From UHGV virus genome UHGV-1579991: 64,000 nucleotides of DNA. One strand, 5' to 3'. The notes under the pieces were generated by a model. The model searched no databases. It was not told the DNA's origin and saw nothing but the letters and a program-made list of their open reading frames with translations. Shown one piece after another: positions 14,929-57,637 of this stretch. Within the stretch, counting starts at the first letter, position 1. Every line of letters starts with the position of its first letter. This stretch comes from a virus. The translations under genes were made by a program, and so were the position numbers.

Positions 14929-15396
14929 TCATTCAATGATAAGTGTATGACCAACTTCTTTCGCAAATGATACAATGCAGCCAAACAATTGCGGGTCGCA
15001 CCAAGGTTTGATGAACTGCTGCCACCAGTGAACATCAGATGACACCATCATTTCTTTGACAAGGTCTTCCTTTTCCCTGTCAAGATATGCAATATCACCC
15101 AACGCAAACATTGACTTCAAGATATTATCATCACTCATGTCAAACTTGCCAAGCCCTTGTTCGTCAACTTTTCGTGCAACTTTGATTGCATCGGGCAGCT
15201 TACATGCGCCATTTGCGCACAAACATGCTGCAAGAATTACAAATGCAGGCTTCTTATCCTGTGCAAGTCTGTATGCCCAATTGCGTGTAGCAGGAAAGTT
15301 TGGCACTCTGATGTCTACACCTTGAGGCAGATTGGATTCTTTAACTGCTTTAAGCTTGGCATCACTGCCAACCATGCCCATCTTTATTTGTGTCAT
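14929..15396 (-). CDS. Hypothetical protein, 155 aa
   Basis: ORF. Confidence 0.4.
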   Translation of the reverse strand: MTQIKMGMVGSDAKLKAVKESNLPQGVDIRVPNFPATRNWAYRLAQDKKPAFVILAACLCANGACKLPDAIKVARKVDEQGLGKFDMSDDNILKSMFALGDIAYLDREKEDLVKEMMVSSDVHWWQQFIKPWCDPQLFGCIVSFAKEVGHTLIIE

Positions 15397-15523: not shown

Positions 15524-15919
15524 TTATCGGTTCTTTGAAAATGAAACTTGCGTTGATTGCTGTGGTCGAACATCAACAAACACTGAATCTACTGCGTCAA
15601 ACTTAAGCGTAGCAAGTGAATCAATTGTTTGCCTTGCTTTTTGCAAATTGCGTGCTTTGATGCCTGATACTGTTGCAGATTTTTCAAGCAGATATGCATC
15701 ACGAGGCGTCCAGTAGCGAGCCTGCCAACGCATATGCATAGAGTCGACAACCAAATTTTCTGCTGCAGCATCAATAATTGCTGCAGTTGATTGCTGAGTT
15801 GCATCAAGTCGTTGCTGCAATACTGCTAATTGCTTTGTGTGCTGCTGTTGATGTTTGAATACTATGCTGATTGCTCCAAATAAGAGAAACCATGCAATAA
15901 AACGCAAAAATGACTTCAT
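15524..15919 (-). CDS. Membrane-anchored protein (N-terminal TM helix, Gln-rich coiled region); spanin-like topology
   Basis: MKSFLRFIAWFLLFGAISIVF then QQQHTKQLAVLQQRLDATQQ. Confidence 0.4.
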   Translation of the reverse strand: MKSFLRFIAWFLLFGAISIVFKHQQQHTKQLAVLQQRLDATQQSTAAIIDAAAENLVVDSMHMRWQARYWTPRDAYLLEKSATVSGIKARNLQKARQTIDSLATLKFDAVDSVFVDVRPQQSTQVSFSKNR

Positions 15920-21300: not shown

Positions 21301-21962
21301 AATAGTGGCTGACTAATTTTGCAAACAGACGCATCAACTACTCGAGATTCAGACATTTGACCTGACTTTTCAAGTCGTCTTGACAATGTATTGTTGACAG
21401 GATGCACTTCTCGAGCCATGTCATGATTGCCCTCTGATTCAAGCTGGTCACTCAGCAACACAAGGCATTTCCAAATGACATACAGTTTTGCCTCATATGC
21501 ATCAAGATATACTTTCTTTGCTGCAGAAGCATTTTCAGATGACACAAATACAGCATCTTCAGTTTGAATTGACAGAGGCTTTGAGATTGTATAGACGTGC
21601 AAGCCTGAACCAGAAGTCGACTTAAGCACAGCAACACACCACGGATATTTGCAAAGCATTGCAGCCAAACGTGGTTTAATGACTTCTACAAGTTCTTTTG
21701 AGTGAAAGTCCAAATCGACTGGCTGTAAGCCTGACCAAGTCAAGTAGTCATGAACTTGTTGTTTTGGTCGAGCAAACATTGTCGATTGCGACACAAAGGG
21801 ACGATGCGCTTTATCTACTGTGTCAAGTGACTCATCATTTGCAACTTTCATGATGAGGTCATACAATGAAATTTGTTGCTTATTGACAGTGTCTTCTGTT
21901 TTACGAACACTGTCGCCCATCATGAACTTTATGCCACTGAGCAAATCTTTGACGTTTGACAT
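18363..21962 (-). CDS. PrimPol-like (archaeo-eukaryotic primase) domain fused to DExH P-loop helicase; putative replicative primase-helicase
   Basis: Start at MSNVKDLL (ATG 21962-21960); AEP-like motifs VDLDFH and SGSGLHVY; Walker A LIARPGSGKTEF; Walker B VVVDESHLL; about 1199 aa. Confidence 0.5.
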   Translation of the reverse strand: MSNVKDLLSGIKFMMGDSVRKTEDTVNKQQISLYDLIMKVANDESLDTVDKAHRPFVSQSTMFARPKQQVHDYLTWSGLQPVDLDFHSKELVEVIKPRLAAMLCKYPWCVAVLKSTSGSGLHVYTISKPLSIQTEDAVFVSSENASAAKKVYLDAYEAKLYVIWKCLVLLSDQLESEGNHDMAREVHPVNNTLSRRLEKSGQMSESRVVDASVCKISQPLFVARDKDVIINQNAQFIEQPEFDVSIYASVDAKFCIDKLKTMFDRLRGRFDYAPKSHMTAMTDGEQVFTQRDDITMIEEGTMLTITPQNYDNTGRYRLAYTLAFLYDLQSTTSAQYQHVLQMFLQMCSGNPKFNAEHNSWANSFRSAVERNAAGTCPCVWSSVKELREKHGFKFKFANKSSVTVNELIAEHNTEDAISQYIMSKVAQQKDFELRHTHVFKLAENEYLSTYKHELEEAFVTGINYLIARPGSGKTEFIKQLTRDGKRVMLIEPYTSILQSKIEMSDLGMYCSFGQRGLELSKHVNVALTFDKFTLADPEEVSILYDYVVVDESHLLTMSAYRDVVPANVIDNLTKLQTKVILMTGTPVAEHMFCHFDTVVFCDKPLNYNKGVRFVCCKHDGDKITKLASHISTAIKAGKRILFPTNKGDAFTHAIVGAVRMMLGRNPKVKYYKRDNAMHDFVQSINESGTIGDIELLFCTNYLSVGIDINDSYEFDVIYDEAFTGQEIEQFNSRLRKISIQSYVYFSMTKANGDPRNITAYDELDLTLTNVEKLTFWDILQMQTKRNDSRSLFDFFEWAFNAPYFYRDPYTGEIKIHLTAYKLNMFEQKWRQWATQLVIIQNTLSSYGYECKVVQDVVADDMMIAQVLNAAKEARAEYRQEKNSKIGKMFASFVNQATFEVIMNLPAEQIQESDRFELVKKNGKLAYLVEDRRVFDDWRHALRTLSHHYLFDTIMKTIDMYVIDNKDMYRLARLKSIKDAVSIFDAGSSGTMHESNIKIVSYMLNDVFNNSKDAVSIASEVVDQIVKNSALIYFDSRGYTPQSPDVLDSVASIARRMFNAITVHDGDIYAIKQLPAFDSGYSRSRDSIAQMLHVLFTDDIFADNTERLLASTKLQSTISSLVFDKQQVEAQVSSGIISFKRVDIDNKFDDNNLTVIEDAPAKDLESPVSKADVEAEREAKRQKAATELERLADELMNRGF

Positions 21963-21974
21963 ATTTTGTTGATG

Positions 21975-22030
21975 CTTTTGTTTGGTCAAAATTATATTGA
22001 ATATGATACAACACTTGTGACATTTTTGCT
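21975..22030 (-). promoter_or_regulatory. Promoter-like motif variant upstream of primase-helicase
   Basis: Minus-strand GCAAAAATGTCACAAGTGTTGTATCATATTCAATATAAT. Confidence 0.4.
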
Positions 22031-22671
22031 TAGAATGCGACACCGACATGTGCGCCAATCATAGCAGCTTTTGAGTCAACTTGCTTCATGCAGCCAGCAT
22101 CAATACCGACACGCCATTGTAAACTACCTTTGCCAAATTGACGAGTGTATGACAGCCAATACATGTCAATTGATTGCTTGTCAAATGTGCCAAATGCATA
22201 ATGAAAGTCTACATTATTTCGTGGCGCATCATGGTCAATGACTTTAATTGTCGTAGTTTGCACTTCACGAATGACTGTGTCTGCTTTGAACATCAAAACG
22301 TCCCAATCACGTTGCTTAATTGCGTTTTGTGTGACATAGTCTTTTATTGCTATTTGCAGTTTGTCTGACTTCAATGTGTCTGCGTACTCATATTGTGCAA
22401 AGTAGTCATTAACATAATGCATAAGCTTTGTTGTGTCAATGTCAACTACAAGAGTCGTGTCACAATACACTGGCACTGGTATTGTCTTGCCAGGTATATG
22501 AACTGTGTCGTGTTTAATGAATGTGTCAACTTTGACAATTGGCTCTGCATTTATAGCATCTTGATATGTTTGCCAGTCTTTTGGGCTGACAAAATGCCAA
22601 TCTTTGAAAATCATGACAGCAGTCAATACAATGACTGCTGTCATGACTATGATTTTGAGTGTCTTCAACAT
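22030..22671 (-). CDS. Signal-peptide protein with C-terminal aromatic beta-strand; possible outer-membrane beta-barrel (Lom/OmpX/Ail-like)
   Basis: N-term MLKTLKIIVMTAVIVLTAVMIF; C-term ...WRVGIDAG...AMIGAHVGVAF ending in Phe. Confidence 0.4.
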   Translation of the reverse strand: MLKTLKIIVMTAVIVLTAVMIFKDWHFVSPKDWQTYQDAINAEPIVKVDTFIKHDTVHIPGKTIPVPVYCDTTLVVDIDTTKLMHYVNDYFAQYEYADTLKSDKLQIAIKDYVTQNAIKQRDWDVLMFKADTVIREVQTTTIKVIDHDAPRNNVDFHYAFGTFDKQSIDMYWLSYTRQFGKGSLQWRVGIDAGCMKQVDSKAAMIGAHVGVAF

Positions 22672-22677
22672 GGTTGC

Positions 22678-24273
22678 TTATGCTTTTGCAGTTACAGATG
22701 ATAAGACAATTCGCTGTAGGAAATTGCCCGTAGTGTCCATGATGTCCCAAGTAGTACTTGAGCCCTCATTGTTTGACAATGTAAATCTGATGTAATTCGA
22801 TGTTCTTGTCAATTCATCGCGAATGATATTGTTGCCTGAACGTGCAATGTAACTACCAAATTTCTGCAATGCAATTTGAGCATTGTCTGTGTCAAGCAAT
22901 GCAATTGATATGTCTACAGAAGAGCCTTTTGGACAGTTAATTGTCTTGACAACGAACAATGATTGAGCATCATCATTTATCACAAGCTTGCTGATAAGCG
23001 TAGGCACTGGTCTGTCAATCTGCAAGACTCTATCTACGCCTGCTTTAGCATTGCCAATGACAGTCTTTTGATTGATAACTTTATGCACAATGTCATATGA
23101 TTCAAATTTGACTTGAGGCTTACGATGCCAGCAAAGCATTGCAATGTCGTCTTCAGACAGAATCAATTGCATTGAACGACTTATACGCACTTGTCCAAGA
23201 GTCGACACGTAATCAAGTACAGCAGTAACATACACAAGAGCCATTTTTGGCTTGTTATCTGGATTGTCATTATCTACAATGATGGGTGACCATTCAACTG
23301 CTTGTGTCGCATTGTCAACATTTGCAAATTGCATATGTCGTATGCTTGAGTCTATGAGAGAGCCTTCTGCATTGTATGCTTGCAAGATGACGTCATATGT
23401 TACATTCGCATCATCAATCAACTCAAGTCTTGAAATCCAATCTGACAATTGCATTGTGCGATGCTTCATCTGCATTTCAATACATGCAGGCGCGTATTCG
23501 GATTCTTGTCTAAGTACTACATCTGCATACAAAGTCTCATCTTCATTGCCGGTCAACAGCAATGCTTGTTTGATTTCTCGAAGAGCAAACTGAGTAAACG
23601 TTCTGACTGCACCAGATACAAGTGACTGCTCAAATGAATAGACTTTGTCATCATATACAAGGCCAATTTCTACATTGATATTTGATTGCAGTGCTCGTCT
23701 TGTAGATGTACCAAACACGAACTCACGAACTTTAGACATTTCGTCACTGTTCATTGAACACAAAAAGTCAATATCAACAATTTTGAATTCAATTTCAGTA
23801 GTGAATTGCTCATTGTCAATGACAACAATTTTGTTCTTGACAGGTGCAAACAATGAACGTGCTTTGATGTCAAGCAATGACATCAAACTGTATTTGACAT
23901 CATCAATGTCAATTGACAGTCTAAGCCAAACGCCAATGACATTTGATGCATAACGAAATCCGCTGACTGCGTATAATCTGCATGTTAGATATTGCAGTTT
24001 GTCAAGCGATGTCGTTTTATATGCTGAATCTGCAAAATTTGCAACAATTGTGTCTGTGTATGAGTCTGGTGTCAGATATGTCGGCACCTGATATGTAGTG
24101 TTTTGTGCAACTGAACTATATTCACGAACATTGTGTGTTTCTGCACCATCGGCATTCAATAAATGCACAACACCACCACTTGCAATCTTATGCAAGGGCA
24201 CATCTGTCATATCATAGACACTTGAATCACCAATCTCAAGGGCAAAATCTTCAGTCAGTCTCAGTCGTTGCAT
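22678..24273 (-). CDS. Hypothetical protein, 531 aa
   Basis: Long ORF; no recognisable motif. Confidence 0.5.
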   Translation of the reverse strand: MQRLRLTEDFALEIGDSSVYDMTDVPLHKIASGGVVHLLNADGAETHNVREYSSVAQNTTYQVPTYLTPDSYTDTIVANFADSAYKTTSLDKLQYLTCRLYAVSGFRYASNVIGVWLRLSIDIDDVKYSLMSLLDIKARSLFAPVKNKIVVIDNEQFTTEIEFKIVDIDFLCSMNSDEMSKVREFVFGTSTRRALQSNINVEIGLVYDDKVYSFEQSLVSGAVRTFTQFALREIKQALLLTGNEDETLYADVVLRQESEYAPACIEMQMKHRTMQLSDWISRLELIDDANVTYDVILQAYNAEGSLIDSSIRHMQFANVDNATQAVEWSPIIVDNDNPDNKPKMALVYVTAVLDYVSTLGQVRISRSMQLILSEDDIAMLCWHRKPQVKFESYDIVHKVINQKTVIGNAKAGVDRVLQIDRPVPTLISKLVINDDAQSLFVVKTINCPKGSSVDISIALLDTDNAQIALQKFGSYIARSGNNIIRDELTRTSNYIRFTLSNNEGSSTTWDIMDTTGNFLQRIVLSSVTAKA

Positions 24274-26205: not shown

Positions 26206-27174
26206 TTAGTCGAGCCAATGCAGCATATTCTCGTCATCAAAACGAGATTCAAGCTCTGCTGTCGTAATGAATGCAAGTTTGTTCAGCATATACTGCTGCA
26301 ATTCACGTTTGCGAATTGATTCAAATCTGACAAATGTTTCAGGCACTTCAAGCTCACCATCAGCATCATATGTTGCAACAGAAGTGTCAACATTGATGTT
26401 GTGAATCTTTTCGCATGACACTCTGTACTTTGTCAAGTCAAAGCCTGGTTTGCCATCATTACGAGGCAACAAACTCCACATAGCAAAGTTTTCTACAGCT
26501 TCAGCAACAAATGCAAGAGCTTCATGCATGTCAACACTGTAGTCTTCTATAAGATTTGCGTATAGTGTAGCTACAATGTTTTGATGTGTCGCAAGGTCAA
26601 GCTTATTGCTAATTGCATGCTCAAAAATGTCTTTGAAGTTCTCATACATAGTAAAGTTCTTCAAGACAAGTCGCTGTAATGCTGTGCGGTCTTCAAGAGC
26701 TGCATATGCAGTGTCATCATGCATTGCAGAAGCCGCTGCTTGCTGAGCATTCAGTACAACTGATACGTCATGAATGACAAATTTTGAGTCAATCAGCACT
26801 GACACTGCAATAAACGGTGCAACAGACTTTGAGTCTTTTTGAGCAAAGTCAATCTCAATGTGAAATGAATTGCCTTGTCGCGATTGCACCGAATGATAAA
26901 TTTCATAGTCATTGACGTACAGCTTAAAGTGCTGCTTAATTGCGTCATTGACTGCATTGATGCCCGCATCATAAATGTTGCCAATCACTTCAAGTGCACG
27001 AGTGTTAAGTGTATGTGCAAGAAATGCTACATTTTGATAGTTGACGAGTTTGTGAGACAAATCAGTCGTGTTGTTAAGTTGTCTCATCAAATCATGCAGT
27101 GCATCATATGACAGTTTGATGTCATCTAACGTGTTGCACTCATGTATTGCGTTAATTTGCTGTGTCAGAGTCAT
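26206..27174 (-). CDS. Hypothetical protein, 322 aa
   Basis: ORF. Confidence 0.5.
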   Translation of the reverse strand: MTLTQQINAIHECNTLDDIKLSYDALHDLMRQLNNTTDLSHKLVNYQNVAFLAHTLNTRALEVIGNIYDAGINAVNDAIKQHFKLYVNDYEIYHSVQSRQGNSFHIEIDFAQKDSKSVAPFIAVSVLIDSKFVIHDVSVVLNAQQAAASAMHDDTAYAALEDRTALQRLVLKNFTMYENFKDIFEHAISNKLDLATHQNIVATLYANLIEDYSVDMHEALAFVAEAVENFAMWSLLPRNDGKPGFDLTKYRVSCEKIHNINVDTSVATYDADGELEVPETFVRFESIRKRELQQYMLNKLAFITTAELESRFDDENMLHWLD

Positions 27175-27418
27175 TTTGTGTATGTTCTTGATTTGCTTGT
27201 TCTGCTAAGTTGTTTATGAATGCTTTGAGCAATTCAATGATTGTTGTTAGTAACTGAATTTGAAACAATACAATGCTAAACATGACAATTGCTACAATGC
27301 AAATTGAAATGAAGAGCATATTGATGTCAAATTTGTTTGCTATCAATGTTTGCAGCCAAGTTATGACTGCAAACATTGAAATCAGTATGAATACTTTGTG
27401 CTGTGATAACGATTTCAT
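27152..27418 (-). CDS. Small membrane protein (two predicted TM helices)
   Basis: FILISMFAVITWL and ISICIVAIVMFSIVLF. Confidence 0.4.
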   Translation of the reverse strand: MKSLSQHKVFILISMFAVITWLQTLIANKFDINMLFISICIVAIVMFSIVLFQIQLLTTIIELLKAFINNLAEQANQEHTQNDSDTAN

Positions 27419-28397: not shown

Positions 28398-28883
28398 TCA
28401 TTTGTAGTGTTCAGTTATGTATGCAGAGCATAGCAAAACAACTGATACACAAATGACAATGTATGTTGGCGTAATCAGTGTCACATTGAATAACAATGCA
28501 GTCAATGCGCATACTGTTACTGATATGAGTGTTGAAATGAATGCAGCATATGCACTAAACTTGCTTTTTAACAAACGTTCGATGATATATGTTGTCGCAA
28601 CAGACAGTAAGACTACACATGCAAATAACAACAGCCAAGTTGAGTTTGACGTTGTCGGCTCTTCAATAAACTGCAATGTTGCTGATGGCACTTCAATATT
28701 GTTTGATGCTTGTAATGTGCCACTTGCAGCATCTGCGTACATCACAGTTAAGTAGTGTCGTTGAATTTCTGCTGCGTCTACTTTATAGATTCTATGCCAT
28801 GCAACATCTGATATGATGTATGTTGCAGCCATAAATGCAGCAATGCATAGCATATAAGAGCCAAACTTTGCAATCGGTTTCAT
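28398..28883 (-). CDS. Integral membrane protein (about 4 TM helices)
   Basis: Start at MKPIAKF (ATG 28883-28881); hydrophobic stretches throughout. Confidence 0.45.
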   Translation of the reverse strand: MKPIAKFGSYMLCIAAFMAATYIISDVAWHRIYKVDAAEIQRHYLTVMYADAASGTLQASNNIEVPSATLQFIEEPTTSNSTWLLLFACVVLLSVATTYIIERLLKSKFSAYAAFISTLISVTVCALTALLFNVTLITPTYIVICVSVVLLCSAYITEHYK

Positions 28884-29260
28884 GCAAATATATTTTTGTT
28901 TGTATATGTACATAAAAGAGCAAGTTCTCCACATTGAGAACTTGCTCAGCTGACCTGTTACCAGGTGAAAGCGTGGTGCAGCACCTTGTGCTGCAATGGC
29001 TATGCTGCCATCGCCATAACGGGCTGAGCATTGCCCAGCATCATTACACGACCAGCTGCATTAAGCGTACGCTTTGCTTTGTTGAAAAATTTGCCAGTTA
29101 TCTGGTATCTGCACATCTATTCAAGCGACCTACTATGCAATCAAATGCCTGTCGAGCCCAATGTTTGAGCAGTTGTTTGTCAGATGCTCAGCTGACTGCA
29201 GTCTTTCTGAGTGTATCAAGTTCAGCGATTCTGCATCTTTGCTAAATGGCAATGGTTCAG

Positions 29261-35385: not shown

Positions 35386-36312
35386 TTATCGCAATTGATT
35401 CTTTGCAATGAATGCATTGATGTGCTCTGGCTTGCATACAGCACGATAGTAGAGTTCAAATACTCGTTTAGCAGATGGCAATTTGCATGCAGTCAAATCT
35501 TTATCTTGCATTACAACACCAGTAATGTACTTAATGTCATGCAGCTCAATGTCTGAACAATGATGCTTTGCTGCAAACTCAAATGCTTGCTTAACAATTT
35601 TTGAGCATTCTGCTGTAGTACATTGCTGAAATGCTGCACAAAACTCTGCATAAGTGCTGCAGTCATTTTGCAGATGTAATGCAACAGATGATTTCAACAT
35701 TGCTTCTGTTAAGTACTTTGGCAGCTTGCACAAAATTTTGACGTACTTGCACTTGTCATCTGTCACATGCACGTAGCCAGACACTGCAAGCATTCTAACA
35801 TATCGAACAAGTTCTCTATGCTGTAGTGCTGTGCGCAGTATGACATTGTTTTGCAGCAAAATCTCATTGTCAACTGTGCAGTTAAGTGGCAATGTGTTGT
35901 ATGCTACTTTAAGATACGATAGCTTCGTTAATTGTTGTAAGCCATCATAGCCAACAAAATCTGCTGGCACAATCAGTGGCAGACTGCAAACGACTTGTCG
36001 ATTATTTCTGTCAACAATTGTGATTGCTGGGTTTTGCAAGTCAAGCACAGATTTTGAACAAAACACTTGCATTGTGTCTTGAACTGTAACAAATCCGAAG
36101 TTCTTGCACAATTGCATATTGCATGTACGAGCTTCTGCTGCGCTAATTGTTGCAATGGGCAACTGTTTGTCGCTACACACATGCATCGGAGTTGGCCATA
36201 TTGGGTCAGCTCTCAATACAAGCACATGTTTGTTGCAGTCATATATTGCAGCAAAATCTGCAAGATTGCTGATGTATCTTAAAGTAGTGTTACAAATCCC
36301 ATTCATATGCAT
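35386..36312 (-). CDS. Hypothetical protein (start approximate)
   Basis: ORF 35386-36504; internal Met chosen to limit overlap with upstream gene. Confidence 0.4.
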   Translation of the reverse strand: MHMNGICNTTLRYISNLADFAAIYDCNKHVLVLRADPIWPTPMHVCSDKQLPIATISAAEARTCNMQLCKNFGFVTVQDTMQVFCSKSVLDLQNPAITIVDRNNRQVVCSLPLIVPADFVGYDGLQQLTKLSYLKVAYNTLPLNCTVDNEILLQNNVILRTALQHRELVRYVRMLAVSGYVHVTDDKCKYVKILCKLPKYLTEAMLKSSVALHLQNDCSTYAEFCAAFQQCTTAECSKIVKQAFEFAAKHHCSDIELHDIKYITGVVMQDKDLTACKLPSAKRVFELYYRAVCKPEHINAFIAKNQLR

Positions 36313-37123
36313 TGTCTTGTACAGGTCCGCTAATTTGAACATCGAGGCCAAAGCGCTCAAGATAGCCATCGCAGAAATCAAGCCCATATTTGTTGCACTG
36401 TCTGAATGCATACTGGAACTTATCCAAGATTGCCCATAGATAAGGCTTCGAGCCCTCGGTGGGATATCCACCCTTTCTGTAATGCCACCAGCGCATGATA
36501 TCATGAAACTCCCAATCTTCTGCTTCGCATTCTACTGTAAAGCAGTCATGATATTTTGTCATCTGAGGCCAGAGCTCAGTGTTGATGCGCTGACGAGTTG
36601 CTGCACAGTCATCAAGCAACTCAAGAAACTCTTCAGGCGCATCAATCATGGGCAGATTTGCTTCATTGACATCGATTTCTGCATCATTCGACAGCAGCTT
36701 TGTGATACGACCATTGTGCTCTGCAATGTCTTCATAGACTTTTTTGCGCGTAGCATCCATAGTCGCAGTCCACTTCGTGCCCTCTTCAATTTTCGGAAGT
36801 TGCTTGTCTTTGTTTTCATTCCATTCAGGTGACTGGTCGAATATTGCCTTGCGACGAATATCGACAAGCTCCAAAAAGAAGGGCTTCGTCAACATAACAG
36901 TATCACCCAGAATTTCTTTTGCTTGTTCAAAGCCCTCAATTTTGATTGAGTCTGCTGCAGCACAAATCTGCTCCTGAATTTTGTCTGCAGCTTCAAGAAT
37001 GATGCGAGCTTTTGTTTTGATGTCGTAAGATGCAGAATGTAAGCCAAGCTGCTCTGCAATTTCTACGGAATTTTGAAGACGAGCCTGCATGGCTTCTTCA
37101 TTGTTCTTCTTTCCTCGTGCCAT
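36290..37123 (-). CDS. Hypothetical protein, 277 aa
   Basis: ORF. Confidence 0.5.
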   Translation of the reverse strand: MARGKKNNEEAMQARLQNSVEIAEQLGLHSASYDIKTKARIILEAADKIQEQICAAADSIKIEGFEQAKEILGDTVMLTKPFFLELVDIRRKAIFDQSPEWNENKDKQLPKIEEGTKWTATMDATRKKVYEDIAEHNGRITKLLSNDAEIDVNEANLPMIDAPEEFLELLDDCAATRQRINTELWPQMTKYHDCFTVECEAEDWEFHDIMRWWHYRKGGYPTEGSKPYLWAILDKFQYAFRQCNKYGLDFCDGYLERFGLDVQISGPVQDNAYEWDL

Positions 37124-41949: not shown

Positions 41950-44900
41950 TCAATTACATGCTGAATGTCCGCAGTTGGTGCATCGAACACAGCCGTCAAA
42001 CTTGACCATGTCACCACCGCATTCAGGACACTTTGCATACATCTTTGAGCCATCTTGAATGTGTAGTTTCAATGCGCGACCAATTGCTTTGCAGAATGTG
42101 CCAACAGATGCAAAGCTTTTTGCAGTTTGGTCGACAATTTCACCAAGGTCGATGCCATTGCGAAGCATCGTTGAGTACAGTCGAGTAATTGTTTGCTGCT
42201 CATCTGAACCAAGACGTTCTGAGATATTGTCATAGTGTTGCAAGAATGACAAATTATCACCAAGCTTGTAGTGCTTCTTATCAGTCTTTGTGATTGTCGT
42301 TTGTTCAATGCCTTGCAACTTGTCAAATTCGTCTTTGTCAAGTTCAAATGCAAAGATTTCATAGGGTCGACCATCATCACAACCTACAAGAATACACCAC
42401 TTACGCTTATACACTGATACACAATACACTGCAGCAGGCAATACAGGTTTTCGTTTTGAGCGATGACCAGACTGCAAGACATGCGACTTATCCTTAGACT
42501 GCTTATCATCTTTTACGAGAACACCTGCACGTGAGCCATCTCGATAAATTGTGCAACCCTTGCAGCCAGATTTCCATGCAGTCAGATAAATTTCACGAAC
42601 AAGCTCTTTTGTTGCAGAGTTTGGAATATTGACTGTTACAGAAATTGATGAGTCAATGTACTTTTGCAACGCGCCTTGCAGTTTAACCTTGCCAATCCAG
42701 TCAACATCTTCAGTAGTTGCCTTATAGTATGGTGATTGAACAAGCAATTCATCAATGACTGCTTGCGAAGCATTTGACAACCAAGCTTTGATACGAGACA
42801 TTTCTGCTTCTGACCATTCAATGCCAGTATCTTTGACAAGGGTGAATTTGTCATCACCAAGCTGCACTCGTTTGCAAATCCACTGCATCAATGGGTAGTG
42901 AACTACAGCGTATTCAATGAACTTGTCACCAGTAGTCTCATCAATGAAGTTGATGTCTGCTTCATTATCAACTGCAGTAGGCTTTCGACGACGTTTGTGC
43001 AGTGGCATAAAAACAGGTTCAATGCCAGAAGTTGTCTGAGTCATCAAAGCTGTGGTGCCAGTTGGCGCAATTGTTGTTGTGTTGATGTTTCGACGACCAA
43101 ATTGTTGATAAGTTGTGATGTGCTCATCATCAATCAGTTCAGATAACATACGCTGAATGAACTTTGACTGCACATCTGTGTCATAGTCGAATATTGCAAA
43201 TGAGCCACGAATCTCTGCCAAGTCAATTGACGCTTCATAAGTCGCCTTTACAAGCCATTGTTGCATAGTGACTGCGAAGTCAATTGACTCTTGTGAACCA
43301 TAGCGCAAGCCAAGCATTGCCATTGCATCGCCAAGTGCAAGAAAGCCCATGCCATATCGACGAGTATTTGTCAATTTGTCATAGACTTTATGCCACAAGT
43401 CAAGCTCAGTTTTCTTAATGTCAAATGATTCTTTGTCTGATTCAACCTTTGCAATGATTCGTTGAACTGCTTCAATTTCAAGCTGCACAAGGTCATCCAT
43501 GATGACTGCACAGTCATATGTATCTTTGTAGAATGCTTCAAAGTCAAATGATGCATCAGCAGTCCAAGGATTAAGCACATATGCAGTCAAATTGCGATGT
43601 GATAAAATGCAGCTTGCATATGCTGCAAGAGGCTGTTCACCGCACTGCCTGTTGTTTACAAATACTTGCATATGTCTGTCATTTGTATCATTGACAGCGT
43701 CAAATGACCCTACAAAAAAGTTGTGATAATCATCTACAGTGCCATTATACACATCTTCTACACCATCAAGTTCAACAGTGTGTACCCTATGATTGTAGTA
43801 ATCTGCAAACTGCTTAAACTTTCTGTATGACGCATGAATAGCAGCGTCAACATTGTTAGATTTGCATTCATTTGCAAATTCTTCATAATTTGGTCGTTTG
43901 CCAAGTTTTTGCTTTGCTGCAGTATATACAAGCACTTGTTCTTTAGACCATTTTGCTTGCTGAGCTGCGTGGCCGCATTCGGCAGAACAATATGCAACTT
44001 CTCTATAAAACCAGTGCGCCCAAAATTCAGAGCCGCAATGTTCGCAAATACGTTTAACATACACTTGTTTGTCAACAAATTTAGTGTCATAGCCCATATT
44101 GCGAACTTTAATTGCTGTTGCTATGCATCTGCTATCAATGCCAACTAAATCAGGATATTTAACATTAGCGCGCGTTGCACAATGACTTAAAAATGCATCA
44201 ATAGAGCCAAATGTTTCTACTAATTTATTGTACCTGTAGCCAGACCATGCAACAGTATTATTGCCTGGCGCATAGCGCATATAGTATTCTAATTCTTTGC
44301 GACTAAGGCCTCTTCCAACTTTTGCAGTGCATTGCGTAACATAGTCTACAATTGATTGCACAGTTGTATCAATATCATATCTGCCATTACGTTCACCAGA
44401 AGTAGATGCACTCATTTTAGCAGAATACTGTGCAAAACGTTCTGCATTTGCTTTAATTTTGTATATTGGATTGTTAGTGCCTCTACGTTCAAGTGCATGT
44501 AATGCATCATGCTCTTTTTTGCTTAGTACTTGTAAGTTATTTGGGTCATTGTTTAATGAATTGCCATCGATATGATGCACTACTGTGTGTGTAGCATCAA
44601 ACTGTTCAGCATGACAGTATTCTGCTATTAAACGATGCTCAAACTTATATACACCATTATTCAACACTGCATAATATGGTGCAGATTTGCTATTTGTTTG
44701 ATAGCTAAGCACTTCATCAAATGAACATTGTTGTCTTGCAATAATTGCTAAGCTATCACCATGCTGTAATTGTCGTGCTTCTTTGTATGTGCCATCTGTT
44801 AACTTAAACTTGTGATTACCTGTGCAACGAATAACATCACCAGAATCAAGTGTAACTTTGTATATTTGCACATTTGAGCCTGTTTTGCGTGGATGCCGCA

Positions 44901-45936
44901 TTTTGCGTACAACTACATTATTGTTGTCATCATAGCAATACACATTAACATCATCGCCAATATCTGCAAGTTCACGTATTGTCATTGTTTGTCTGCCATC
45001 AGCAAGCATAACTTTAGTGCTGCCAACAATGCATGGATTTGTTGAGCGCTCTTCATACATTTTACCGTATGCTTTCGAGTTCGACTCTTCCATAATGCGG
45101 TCCCAAAAGAACACGCCGGGTTCTGCAGATGCCCATACATTGTCAACAATTTTGTCAAATAATGCTTTTGCATCTGATGTCTTATGCAGCTCTTGGCCAT
45201 CAGAGCCACGCCAAATATGTTCAAACTGCTGTTCTGCAAGCACTGCACGCATAAATGCATCAGTAAGCTTGATGGAAATGTTTGCACCTGTGATTTTTGT
45301 CAAGTCTTTTTTTGCGTCAATGAACTTATCTGCATCAGGATGCTCAATTGACAATGACAACATCAATGCGCCACGCCTGCCATTTTGTGCAACTTCTTTT
45401 GTCGATGTTGAAAAGCGTTCCATAAATGACACGACACCAGACGTCGTAATAGCACTGTTATGTACTTCTACGCCTTCTGGGCGAATATGCGACAAATCAT
45501 GGCCAACACCACCACGACGTTTCATCAACTGAACTTGCTCTTCATCTGTTTTGAAGATGCCGCCATATGAATCTGCATCATTGCCTATTACATAGCAATT
45601 TGACATTGATGTGTAACCGCCAAGACCGATACCAGCCATTGGAGAACCACCAAGTACAAATCGCTTAAATGGCTCAAGCAAATATGCAAGTCGCTCTTTT
45701 GACAATACACGTTTGCCTGTCTGTTCTTCAAATTGTGATTCTATACGGTCAAATTCATTGACCCAGCGCTCATGCATATCAGACAATGAGTGTTCATACA
45801 AATTGTCTTTGTCATGATGCAAGTATTTTGACATGCATATGTCAGCAGCCATTGAGTCGCCCGTAAATTCATGCGTCAGTGTAGTGTGCACTTCAGCATA
45901 TTCAGGCGACCCAATTTGAATGGGACGTTTTGTCAT
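41950..45936 (-). CDS. nrdJ: Ribonucleotide reductase, class II (adenosylcobalamin-dependent, NrdJ-like), interrupted in-frame by an intein
   Basis: Start at MTKRP (ATG 45936-45934); extein motifs STNP...CGEQPL (reconstitutes NPCGE), TIYRDGSR, C-terminal CPECGG...CTNCG zinc ribbon; total ORF 1328 aa is far longer than a typical RNR. Confidence 0.75.
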   Translation of the reverse strand: MTKRPIQIGSPEYAEVHTTLTHEFTGDSMAADICMSKYLHHDKDNLYEHSLSDMHERWVNEFDRIESQFEEQTGKRVLSKERLAYLLEPFKRFVLGGSPMAGIGLGGYTSMSNCYVIGNDADSYGGIFKTDEEQVQLMKRRGGVGHDLSHIRPEGVEVHNSAITTSGVVSFMERFSTSTKEVAQNGRRGALMLSLSIEHPDADKFIDAKKDLTKITGANISIKLTDAFMRAVLAEQQFEHIWRGSDGQELHKTSDAKALFDKIVDNVWASAEPGVFFWDRIMEESNSKAYGKMYEERSTNPCIVGSTKVMLADGRQTMTIRELADIGDDVNVYCYDDNNNVVVRKMRHPRKTGSNVQIYKVTLDSGDVIRCTGNHKFKLTDGTYKEARQLQHGDSLAIIARQQCSFDEVLSYQTNSKSAPYYAVLNNGVYKFEHRLIAEYCHAEQFDATHTVVHHIDGNSLNNDPNNLQVLSKKEHDALHALERRGTNNPIYKIKANAERFAQYSAKMSASTSGERNGRYDIDTTVQSIVDYVTQCTAKVGRGLSRKELEYYMRYAPGNNTVAWSGYRYNKLVETFGSIDAFLSHCATRANVKYPDLVGIDSRCIATAIKVRNMGYDTKFVDKQVYVKRICEHCGSEFWAHWFYREVAYCSAECGHAAQQAKWSKEQVLVYTAAKQKLGKRPNYEEFANECKSNNVDAAIHASYRKFKQFADYYNHRVHTVELDGVEDVYNGTVDDYHNFFVGSFDAVNDTNDRHMQVFVNNRQCGEQPLAAYASCILSHRNLTAYVLNPWTADASFDFEAFYKDTYDCAVIMDDLVQLEIEAVQRIIAKVESDKESFDIKKTELDLWHKVYDKLTNTRRYGMGFLALGDAMAMLGLRYGSQESIDFAVTMQQWLVKATYEASIDLAEIRGSFAIFDYDTDVQSKFIQRMLSELIDDEHITTYQQFGRRNINTTTIAPTGTTALMTQTTSGIEPVFMPLHKRRRKPTAVDNEADINFIDETTGDKFIEYAVVHYPLMQWICKRVQLGDDKFTLVKDTGIEWSEAEMSRIKAWLSNASQAVIDELLVQSPYYKATTEDVDWIGKVKLQGALQKYIDSSISVTVNIPNSATKELVREIYLTAWKSGCKGCTIYRDGSRAGVLVKDDKQSKDKSHVLQSGHRSKRKPVLPAAVYCVSVYKRKWCILVGCDDGRPYEIFAFELDKDEFDKLQGIEQTTITKTDKKHYKLGDNLSFLQHYDNISERLGSDEQQTITRLYSTMLRNGIDLGEIVDQTAKSFASVGTFCKAIGRALKLHIQDGSKMYAKCPECGGDMVKFDGCVRCTNCGHSACN
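43645..45033 (-). mobile_element. Intein (about 463 aa) with Hint blocks and an HNH endonuclease domain, apparently ending in Gln
   Basis: Begins at Cys after STNP (CIVGSTKVMLADGRQTMTIRELADIGDD, block A); block B GNHKFKLTDG; HNH motif VVHHIDGNSLNNDPNNLQVLSKKEHDALH; zinc-finger-like CEHCGSEF...CSAECGH; block F VYNGTVDDYHNFFVG; ends ...VFVNNRQ immediately before CGEQ. Confidence 0.65.
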
Positions 45937-45973
45937 TGTAACAGTGCATTTAAGTGTTTTAACAGTTTTATGT

Positions 45974-46007
45974 ATAAATTGTACAACAATGGGCAAAATT
46001 TTGCATC
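45974..46007 (-). promoter_or_regulatory. Promoter-like conserved motif containing TTGTACAA upstream of RNR
   Basis: Minus-strand GATGCAAAATTTTGCCCATTGTTGTACAATTTATAC. Confidence 0.5.
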
Positions 46008-57064: not shown

Positions 57065-57637
57065 TTAAAATTTGGATAGACTCGTAGTATCAAGCGATGC
57101 AATTGAATCAATGCGCAAAGAATCTGCTATAGGTGCGCAATCATCAATTGGGTGACTTGCAGGCTTAACTTTGAGCATATACATTCTGCAATTGCCAATA
57201 TCTATAAGGGAACCAGAACGTGTCATATAATCACAGCCCAAAATGCCAACGACTTCATGACCAAGTGCTTTGCTAAGCTGAACTAAAATAGGTGAAATAT
57301 CATCAATAAACATATCCAACTGTACAGAGCCATTTGCGATAGTAATATCTGCGTCTATTGCATGAGATACTTGAAGAGCCCCTGTAACATATGATAATCG
57401 CTTAACTGAACGCTCTTTGCCAACCATGTCATGAGTAGCAACAAATGTGCTATCAATCAATGACAATGACGCGCCAGTATCAAGCAAAAGCCATGCATCG
57501 ACACCATTGACATTTGCATGCACAAATGGCAGGCTCTTCAAAACAATTGGTGACTGTGATTGCTGCAATGCTTCATTGCACATTGTCAGCGTCATAATCG
57601 CAAGTAGCGATATGAGAAACAATTTGAATGCTTTCAT
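57065..57637 (-). CDS. Retropepsin-like aspartic protease with N-terminal signal peptide
   Basis: MKAFKLFLISLLAIMTLTMC hydrophobic leader; active-site LLLDTGAS; downstream VVGILGCDYM. Confidence 0.55.
   Translation of the reverse strand: MKAFKLFLISLLAIMTLTMCNEALQQSQSPIVLKSLPFVHANVNGVDAWLLLDTGASLSLIDSTFVATHDMVGKERSVKRLSYVTGALQVSHAIDADITIANGSVQLDMFIDDISPILVQLSKALGHEVVGILGCDYMTRSGSLIDIGNCRMYMLKVKPASHPIDDCAPIADSLRIDSIASLDTTSLSKF

Follow-up and report, generated by a model that had tools for sequence, protein, structure and literature searches.

The unimolecular spanin gp11 of phage T1 has an N-terminal lipoprotein anchor for the outer membrane (OM) and a C-terminal transmembrane domain (TMD) for the inner membrane. 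The periplasmic domain of gp11 is rich in beta structure, and 91 of 677 phages of Gram-negative hosts (~13%) lack a recognisable spanin (PMC6139136). Here we describe a gene from a 64,000-nucleotide stretch of the virus genome UHGV-1579991 (this whole stretch is called the window) that invites comparison with these lysis proteins. The gene, referred to below as the target, is an open reading frame (ORF) with an ATG start at positions 22030..22671 on the minus strand. Its 213-aa product is a member of an uncharacterised family of phage envelope proteins distantly related to DUF6808 (family hidden Markov model (HMM) E=1e-39). We tentatively favour a reading in which the protein has its anchor in the inner membrane, extends to the outer membrane and contributes to its disruption at lysis; on this reading it would be functionally analogous to spanins but new in architecture.

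Like T1 gp11, the target protein is a single chain with a predicted tether in each membrane of a diderm host, a beta-rich periplasmic part and a small size (130-220 aa). Family relatives also sit after a holin and an endolysin in lysis cassettes; a location in such a cassette is seen at the loci L004, L096-L098, L102, L105, L106 and MW202828.1, whereas the gene of the target clade lies in a replication module. However, the polarity is reversed relative to gp11. The target has an N-terminal helix and a four-strand C-terminus resembling that of outer-membrane proteins (OMPs), and it lacks a lipobox, a C-terminal transmembrane (TM) helix and sequence similarity to gp11.

The two-component i-spanin/o-spanin systems, such as lambda Rz/Rz1 and T4 PseT.3/PseT.2, offer a second comparison. 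As in Rz, an N-terminal TMD would be oriented N-in and followed by a C-out periplasmic domain. Many family members also carry a membrane-proximal periplasmic Cys that recalls disulfide-linked spanin dimers, and the linkage to lysis cassettes is shared. In contrast to an i-spanin, the periplasmic part of the target is composed of a short helix, a hairpin, an alpha/beta core and a beta-meander rather than a coiled coil. Moreover, no embedded, overlapping or adjacent lipoprotein gene serves as an o-spanin partner at the target, and a scan of the gene strand from 21600 to 22800 revealed no reading frame bearing a lipobox. The literature searched yielded no account of a lysis-associated protein built in this way. 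A sub-barrel OM module that oligomerises or augments another barrel while carried on a chain tethered to the inner membrane would be a new structural idea.

The target gene is conserved at 92-94% identity in two viral contigs of ~175 kb from IMG/VR. A word-indexed search of Logan gave two contigs with homologues (93% and 53% identity) as its sole matches. The protein ends in ...LQWRVGIDAGCMKQVDSKAAMIGAHVGVAF, and its final residues (MIGAHVGVAF-COOH) are hydrophobic at positions 1, 3, 5, 7 and 9 counted from the C-terminus. This is a beta-signal-like terminus with a terminal aromatic residue, as expected of the small OM barrels Ail, Lom and OmpX. We defined an OMP-type C-terminal pattern as an aromatic last residue with hydrophobic residues at -3, -5, -7 and -9, and found it in none of 747 control ORFs, which comprised the distinct non-family ORFs of at least 60 aa from the window and all fetched loci. 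Among the 70 ORFs of the window, only the target carries the pattern. F213 is the exact C-terminus in all nine members of the target clade, in which N152, Y171, Y175, R177, Q185, G189 and F213 are invariant. Conservation of the gene, together with a pattern that is absent from the controls, indicates that the gene is real and that its C-terminal feature goes beyond chance. An earlier note on this DNA, which did not state the strand, had predicted both a 213-aa gene here and a terminal aromatic strand of OMP type, and these two predictions have held.

The fold was predicted with AlphaFold (AF2) using an alignment of 107 sequences, yielding a monomer model with a mean predicted local distance difference test (pLDDT) of 86 and a predicted template modelling score (pTM) of 0.43. 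The model begins with a hydrophobic helix (aa 2-23; 22603..22668 on the minus strand, as for all parts of the gene) at pLDDT ~90, which holds the apolar span I7-F22. A juxtamembrane helix (30-40) and a beta-hairpin (47-63) follow (together aa 30-63; 22483..22584), a region delineated by AF2 and by conservation that includes the DT motifs D49-T50 and D55-T56, with P65 conserved as well. After a linker, helix 80-91 is packed with four charged strands (94-138) to form a conserved, soluble alpha/beta core (aa 80-138; 22258..22434) at pLDDT 90-96. A linker of lower confidence (139-151) then leads to the C-terminal module (aa 152-213; 22033..22218), which is composed of four antiparallel amphipathic strands (152-163, 166-179, 185-197 and 200-212) of 12-14 residues each at pLDDT ~90, ending in G-V-A-F-COOH.

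The two sets of strands differ in composition: the central strands are 30% charged and have no Gly, compared with 13% charged residues, 17% aromatic residues and five Gly in the C-terminal strands. The C-terminal sheet has a uniformly hydrophobic face displaying V154, F156, Y158 and F160 from the first strand, Y171, L173, Y175 and F179 from the second, L184, W186, V188, I190, A192 and C194 from the third, and A203, I205, A207, V209, V211 and F213 from the fourth. The opposite face is polar, small or Gly-rich, and this two-faced pattern is conserved both in the target clade and across the family. The turns between strands are short, leaving no long surface loops. The four strands superpose on the walls of OM barrels (including those of PagL, NspA, BrkA and BamA) over 61-68 residues at 2.1-2.5 Å, and because the alignment is limited to this length, they resemble half of a small barrel wall rather than a whole barrel. 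As modelled, the C-terminal module is OMP-like. A Foldseek search of BFVD with the model matched only uncharacterised phage proteins, one of which is labelled DUF6808.

Two groups of OM proteins help to place this module. The small eight-stranded barrels (OmpX, Ail, Lom, the N-domains of OmpA/OprF, PagL and NspA) share with it the wall onto which its strands superpose, the dyad hydrophobic pattern, the aromatic residues and the terminal Phe of a beta-signal-like motif. However, the target has half as many strands and, in addition, a conserved periplasmic domain. The second group consists of OM barrels to which each protomer contributes four strands, such as the anchors of YadA-type trimeric autotransporters and the TolC family, and also CsgG and the secretins. 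The target resembles them in that its C-terminal module has exactly four amphipathic strands and by itself cannot form a closed barrel, and in that the periplasmic or passenger part is N-terminal to that module. Unlike these proteins, with which no homology was detected, the target lacks a coiled-coil stalk or passenger, and a membrane helix takes the place of the cleaved signal peptide.

The N-terminus of the target is MLKTLKIIVMTAVIVLTAVMIFKDW, in which the apolar span I7-F22 (16 residues) is flanked on its N-terminal side by MLKTLK and followed by KDWHFVSP. The sequence after the span lacks small residues at -1 and -3, an A-x-A motif and a lipobox. Thus, the signal or anchor segment proposed in the earlier note is present as an apolar span, but it shows no evident signal-peptidase or lipobox site. 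A single N-terminal hydrophobic helix with no second one is found in 98 of 107 family members, and the remaining few are apparently truncated at the N-terminus. Across the family, the apolar span has a median length of 15 residues (interquartile range 14-16) and an N-flank of net positive charge. The helix is probably an uncleaved signal anchor, predicted to lie N-in in the inner membrane.

In 79 of the 98 members with this helix, a Cys occurs 1-3 residues after it in the motif [LF]-[RKQ]-x-C. We considered whether this Cys belongs to a lipoprotein lipobox and rejected the idea, as a strict lipobox is present in only one of the 79, position -2 is mostly R, K or Q, and position -1 is often Q, E or N. 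By analogy with spanins, the residue could instead allow dimerisation through a disulfide close to the membrane. In the target clade, this place is taken by W, Y or F, and the Cys is absent.

The helix-coding region of the target gene also contains an mRNA hairpin (22609..22648, minus strand) that starts ~23 nt past the first base of the ATG. The hairpin is a perfect 15-bp inverted repeat, or 17 bp with extensions, and has a predicted energy of -31.2 kcal/mol (z=-5.0 versus shuffles). It is kept in the relatives of 92-94% identity, where L002 has two substitutions that yield G-U wobbles and L014 has one that disrupts a pair. The 53% relative (L001) lacks the hairpin, which is specific to the closest relatives. 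The structure may modulate translation by serving as a translational brake or a coupling element.

Searches with the target alone were uninformative. A Pfam scan returned no family even at E<=1, comparison with PHROGs and tblastn against 50,697 GenBank phages gave nothing useful, and PDB sequences yielded no useful match and no OMP. An exhaustive profile search revealed 70 cluster representatives of 150-230 aa at E<=1e-3. A second search using the family profile added 36 members, all of them unnamed and devoid of Pfam domains, and one subfamily alone accounts for at least 579 confirmed IMG/VR stretches. The architecture common to the family includes an N-terminal hydrophobic segment, a conserved core and a Gly/aromatic-rich, beta-type C-terminal region of ~60 residues. 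The core follows the consensus DT...DT...P...DT...(I)DT..IL.DYFA..Y.DTL..D....I.DTI.QN.I..R, in which D79 (target numbering) is invariant and D49, T50, Y96, D98, N116, I118 and R121 are each present in at least 90% of members. The target has all the features by which we define this new family of 'DT-motif, half-barrel' envelope proteins, namely a length of 170-230 aa, the single N-terminal hydrophobic helix, the DT-motif core and the four-strand Gly/aromatic amphipathic C-terminal module.

DUF6808 (PF20647) is matched by three of 107 family members (best E=2.7e-10), and the target and most other members do not reach this model. From these sequence comparisons, the relation of the family to DUF6808 appears distant, at the superfamily level at best. 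One weak match to OMP_b-brl (E=0.0016) was observed among the 107 relatives. Our literature search found no paper that mentions DUF6808, nothing on this family under DUF6808 or DUF6549, and nothing on it among reports of beta-barrel or Bacteroidota spanins. Three further family members had no match by tblastn against GenBank phages, and no diverged member was found beside the orthologous helicase of Chryseobacterium phage MA9V-2.

All contigs whose gene content could be inspected carry phage genes, and the other loci come from the IMG/VR viral collection or from metagenome-assembled genome bins. The family is phage-specific. In a collection of species-representative genomes, six bins include a family member, and the five that are named are all Bacteroidota: two Chitinophagaceae and one each of Flavobacteriaceae, Bacteroides and Lentimicrobiaceae. 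Members are abundant in uncultured freshwater, marine and gut phages. This is a widespread and uncharacterised family from phages of Bacteroidota.

The gene neighbourhoods of relatives provide the main link to lysis. In four distinct cassette architectures, the family gene accompanies lysis genes and takes the slot usually occupied by spanins. In the first (L004/L005, L096, L097, L098 and L102), a TM protein of 61-88 aa is followed by a GH19 endolysin, a Phage_holin_4_1 protein and then the family member, whose start overlaps or abuts the holin stop. Some of these GH19 endolysins carry a peptidoglycan-binding motif, and the holins score 19.6-23.7 bits against Phage_holin_4_1, for which the gathering cutoff is 22.2. 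The second architecture, from a Lentimicrobiaceae bin (L106), includes an 88-aa TM and coiled-coil protein, a 112-aa M15C endopeptidase that matches PDB 8q2g (E=5e-7), and a family member whose start overlaps the endopeptidase stop; an integrase gene adjoins. In the third, from a Bacteroides bin (L105), the family member comes first and is followed by a 106-aa TM and coiled-coil protein, a 133-aa secreted protein, a 74-aa protein with two TM segments and an M15 endolysin (PDB 2vo9, E=5e-24). L107 resembles L105 but has a lipoprotein (LFLFGC).

The fourth architecture occurs in MW202828.1, a complete genome of 60.8 kb, where a multi-TM ORF precedes the family member (E=1.4e-37 to the family HMM), which in turn precedes an annotated peptidase M15. 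The multi-TM ORF is itself unannotated. It lies between annotated genes and immediately upstream of the family member, at 36014-36457 on the minus strand of this locus (L109), spans at least 147 aa, and has 3-4 hydrophobic helices and a 'SVLENL' motif. Judged by its sequence, it is probably a holin gene that was missed in the GenBank record. A small local holin HMM did not confirm this assignment (E=0.09), and for this reason we call the ORF holin-like only.

In six other loci (L006, L042, L056, L092, L099 and L103), the family gene is directly upstream of the large terminase gene. The gene upstream of the family member in L006 was considered as an endolysin and rejected, because its SLT_2 match is weak (E=0.003, below cutoff) and is not reproduced in homologues. 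At L075 (2545-4943), two secreted OMP-like proteins are encoded directly upstream of the family member. One has 285 aa and a signal peptide ending in AFS|Q, and the other has 513 aa, an extended low-complexity linker (Ala/Ser/Lys/Glu) and a C-terminus that is rich in beta structure and ends in ...FQIGSKMTF. The sequences of this pair point to an outer-membrane module that the phage encodes.

An inner-membrane anchor, a periplasmic domain, an OM-type module and a recurrent position in the spanin slot of cassettes that otherwise look spanin-less together suggest an envelope-spanning, OM-directed lysis factor, and the frequent presence of relatives inside lysis cassettes means that the family protein may help to break the host outer membrane. 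In the mechanism that we envisage, the N-terminal helix would remain in the inner membrane in an N-in orientation, and ~125 residues, including the conserved acidic 'DT-motif' alpha/beta domain, would occupy the periplasm. The C-terminal four-strand meander, which in the target clade ends in an OMP-type beta-signal, would engage the outer membrane either by oligomerising into a barrel (e.g. of 2x4 or 3x4 strands) or through beta-augmentation of a host barrel or of the machinery for beta-barrel assembly (BAM). Once the endolysin had removed the peptidoglycan, the protein would destabilise or breach the outer membrane. Compared with gp11, its outer-membrane anchor would be of the beta-barrel type and not a lipid. 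We infer the topology, OM insertion, oligomerisation and lysis role, above all for the target, which is located outside any recognisable lysis cassette.

A more specific version of this proposal is also more doubtful. It holds that the family represents a third architectural class of phage OM disruptor, in which the four-strand module on an inner-membrane-anchored chain would be inserted by the host BAM as an oligomeric barrel, a natural 'half- or third-barrel' OMP, or wedged into a host barrel by beta-augmentation, linking both membranes and breaching the outer membrane after removal of the wall. On this version, the family would supply the spanin equivalent that many Bacteroidota phages have long been missing, and would illustrate in nature how OM barrels may have arisen from hairpin modules.

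Several observations dampen our enthusiasm for a spanin-like role. The apolar span is of intermediate length, which leaves room for cleavage. A lysis context is recognisable in only 4-5 of 16 sequence clusters, and a loose comparison of small TM or lysis-like genes near the family gene (17/89) and far from it (25/192) shows no significant enrichment. Candidate canonical spanins (a TM and coiled-coil protein plus a lipoprotein) coexist with the family member in L105 and L107, so the family perhaps does not provide 'the' spanin. We know of no precedent for BAM-type insertion of a protein that is still tethered to the inner membrane. The target model is a monomer with a pTM of 0.43. A Foldseek search of the PDB gave no significant match for this model. 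Pore-toxin shapes topped the PDB list; they are likewise not significant, and we do not rely on them.

The surroundings of the target itself add to these reservations. No recognisable lysis genes adjoin it, and the clade gene sits in a replication module, tightly coupled to an ORFan, here termed X, that lacks TM segments. The gene order topoisomerase II-A, X, family member, helicase (~1200 aa) and clamp loader is found in six lineages (window/L002/L013, L001, L008, L009, L100 and L101) at 28-54% identity. In the window, X is a 531-aa ORFan at 22678..24273 on the minus strand, and its stop lies 6 nt from the target ATG. Throughout this clade of jumbo phages, this conserved partner has 531-568 aa and is separated from the family member by 6 nt or overlaps it, and its homologues (P0108-P0112) are 37-98% identical. 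X has no TM segment, no signal and no Pfam, PHROG or PDB match.

The window also may contain a candidate canonical spanin pair of its own. A 131-aa protein encoded at 15524-15919 (minus strand) has an i-spanin-like layout, in which a single TM helix at the N-terminus precedes a helical remainder rich in Q, and it matches no family. In L100 and L101, the same place after the clamp loader is taken by a protein of similar size. The ORF that follows in the window (14929-15396, minus strand; 155 aa, no family match) contains an internal lipobox-like sequence, 'KKPAFVILAAC', and could hold an o-spanin that is read from an internal start.

Three further explanations are each unlikely. The first is that the protein acts in the inner membrane as a lysis timer or regulator of T4-T/RI-like type: a holin of class III (like T4 T), an antiholin, or a protein that partners a holin. 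Here the helix would lie in the inner membrane, the periplasmic domain would sense or bind holin or endolysin partners, and the beta-sheet would serve as a protein-protein interface. T4 holin T is ~218 aa long and combines one N-proximal TMD with a large domain in the periplasm. The target has the same gross topology and a similar size, with a large periplasmic C-terminal domain, and its family is scattered in T4-like and jumbo genomes much as the lysis genes, T included, are in T4-like genomes. The stop/start overlaps with holin genes and the position directly beside the endolysin in MW202828.1 are also consistent with a regulator. However, there is no sequence or fold match to T, in which the OMP-like C-terminal module has no counterpart.

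A second, similarly improbable, explanation is that the target product is rich in beta structure, resides in the periplasm or associates with the virion, and packs its amphipathic sheet on a partner (e.g. X) or on its own central sheet, with no membrane insertion of the C-terminus and an assembly-related or other function. The tight coupling to X conserved in six lineages fits this idea, as do the frequent proximity of the gene to terminase and morphogenesis genes and a weak BFVD match (E=3e-4) to a 'structural protein' of Cellulophaga phage phi17:2. The low pTM (0.43) is compatible with various domain packings.

The third explanation, which we also regard as having little chance of being correct, is that the product is an envelope protein that acts during infection. 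By analogy with Lom/Bor/Cor/Llp or T4 Imm/Sp, it might mediate superinfection exclusion, receptor masking or remodelling of the host surface or outer membrane. A membrane-targeted protein with an OM-like module could serve such a role, the genes of the target clade lie among replication genes that are probably early or middle, and morons such as lambda bor adjoin lysis cassettes. However, conservation of the family over highly divergent lytic genomes of T4-like, jumbo and podovirus type makes a core function likelier than a sporadic moron. The family genes are co-oriented with lysis or other neighbouring genes and are often translationally coupled to them, rather than forming an autonomous cassette. 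Furthermore, the short inter-strand turns leave little surface-exposed material, and no known exclusion protein was found to be homologous. The earlier note also put forward a role in superinfection exclusion or surface modification; we found no positive evidence for it, and the contexts of relatives point to lysis cassettes instead.

The identity suggested in that note, a Lom/OmpX/Ail-like small OM barrel, has not survived. The reading of the target as a classical monomeric eight-stranded barrel with a cleaved signal peptide is effectively refuted: eight consecutive beta-strands are predicted (residues 94-212) and the terminal ...VGVAF is like the ...VGYRF of OmpX, but only four strands are of membrane type, the other four being 30% charged and part of a soluble domain, and there is no Pfam match at E<=1, no HMM homology, no long surface loop and no evident signal cleavage. 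Structure prediction, which the note had proposed as a check, thus returned no eight-stranded barrel but did return four OMP-type C-terminal strands (AF2, pLDDT 86).

The favoured reading, that of an inner-membrane-anchored OM disruptor, bears on how phages of Bacteroidota, and Gram-negative phages without spanins, cross the outer membrane. If it is true, lysis cassettes could be annotated in thousands of Bacteroidota phage genomes, and a new membrane-active module would become available for engineering lysins against Bacteroidota. Such a disruptor would also pose a mechanistic puzzle, as BAM would have to insert a tethered substrate of sub-barrel size. Deletion and complementation in Flavobacterium or Bacteroides phage systems would test the question directly. 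If the protein is instead an exclusion factor or a holin regulator, the results would still define a large uncharacterised family of envelope proteins.

The window is part of the large (~175 kb) genome of a tailed phage. It encodes a T4-type large terminase, a gp23-like major capsid protein, two topoisomerase II subunits, a NAD-dependent ligase and a clamp loader. The major capsid protein is nearest (34-39% identity) to those of Chryseobacterium, Tenacibaculum and Sphingomonas jumbo phages and is more distantly like those of Flavobacterium and Prevotella (Lak) phages. No nucleotide-level relative was found among GenBank phages. The capsid relatives indicate that the host is very probably diderm, and a member of Bacteroidota is most likely. 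The diderm host predicted in the earlier note is thereby supported, as it also is by the assignment of all named bins to Bacteroidota.

Ten candidate ORFs of the window were tested and gave no match to holin, endolysin or spanin families, and local GH19 and holin profiles had no matches in the window. Two of its proteins are holin-like candidates by layout, although neither matches a family: an 88-aa protein with two TM segments (27152-27418) and a 178-aa protein with four (28398-28934), both encoded on the minus strand, as is the target, and ~5 kb upstream of it. In the related locus L008, the gene inserted between X and the family member (313-588) encodes a protein of 90 aa, in which a long hydrophobic helix at the N-terminus is combined with a Cys-rich tail resembling a zinc ribbon.

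Two other genes of the window deserve mention. The large subunit of ribonucleotide reductase (41950-45996, minus strand) is split by an intein that carries a homing endonuclease of the HNH type (Pfam families Intein_splicing and HNH_3). A 190-aa protein encoded among the head genes (57065-57637, minus strand) carries a retropepsin-type aspartyl protease domain (Pfam Asp_protease_2, E=1.8e-6) with the motif LLDTGAS. Its hydrophobic N-terminus resembles a signal peptide and is followed by a Cys (…LTLTMC, which is not a canonical lipobox), and from these sequence features the product is an unusual candidate for a prohead or envelope protease.

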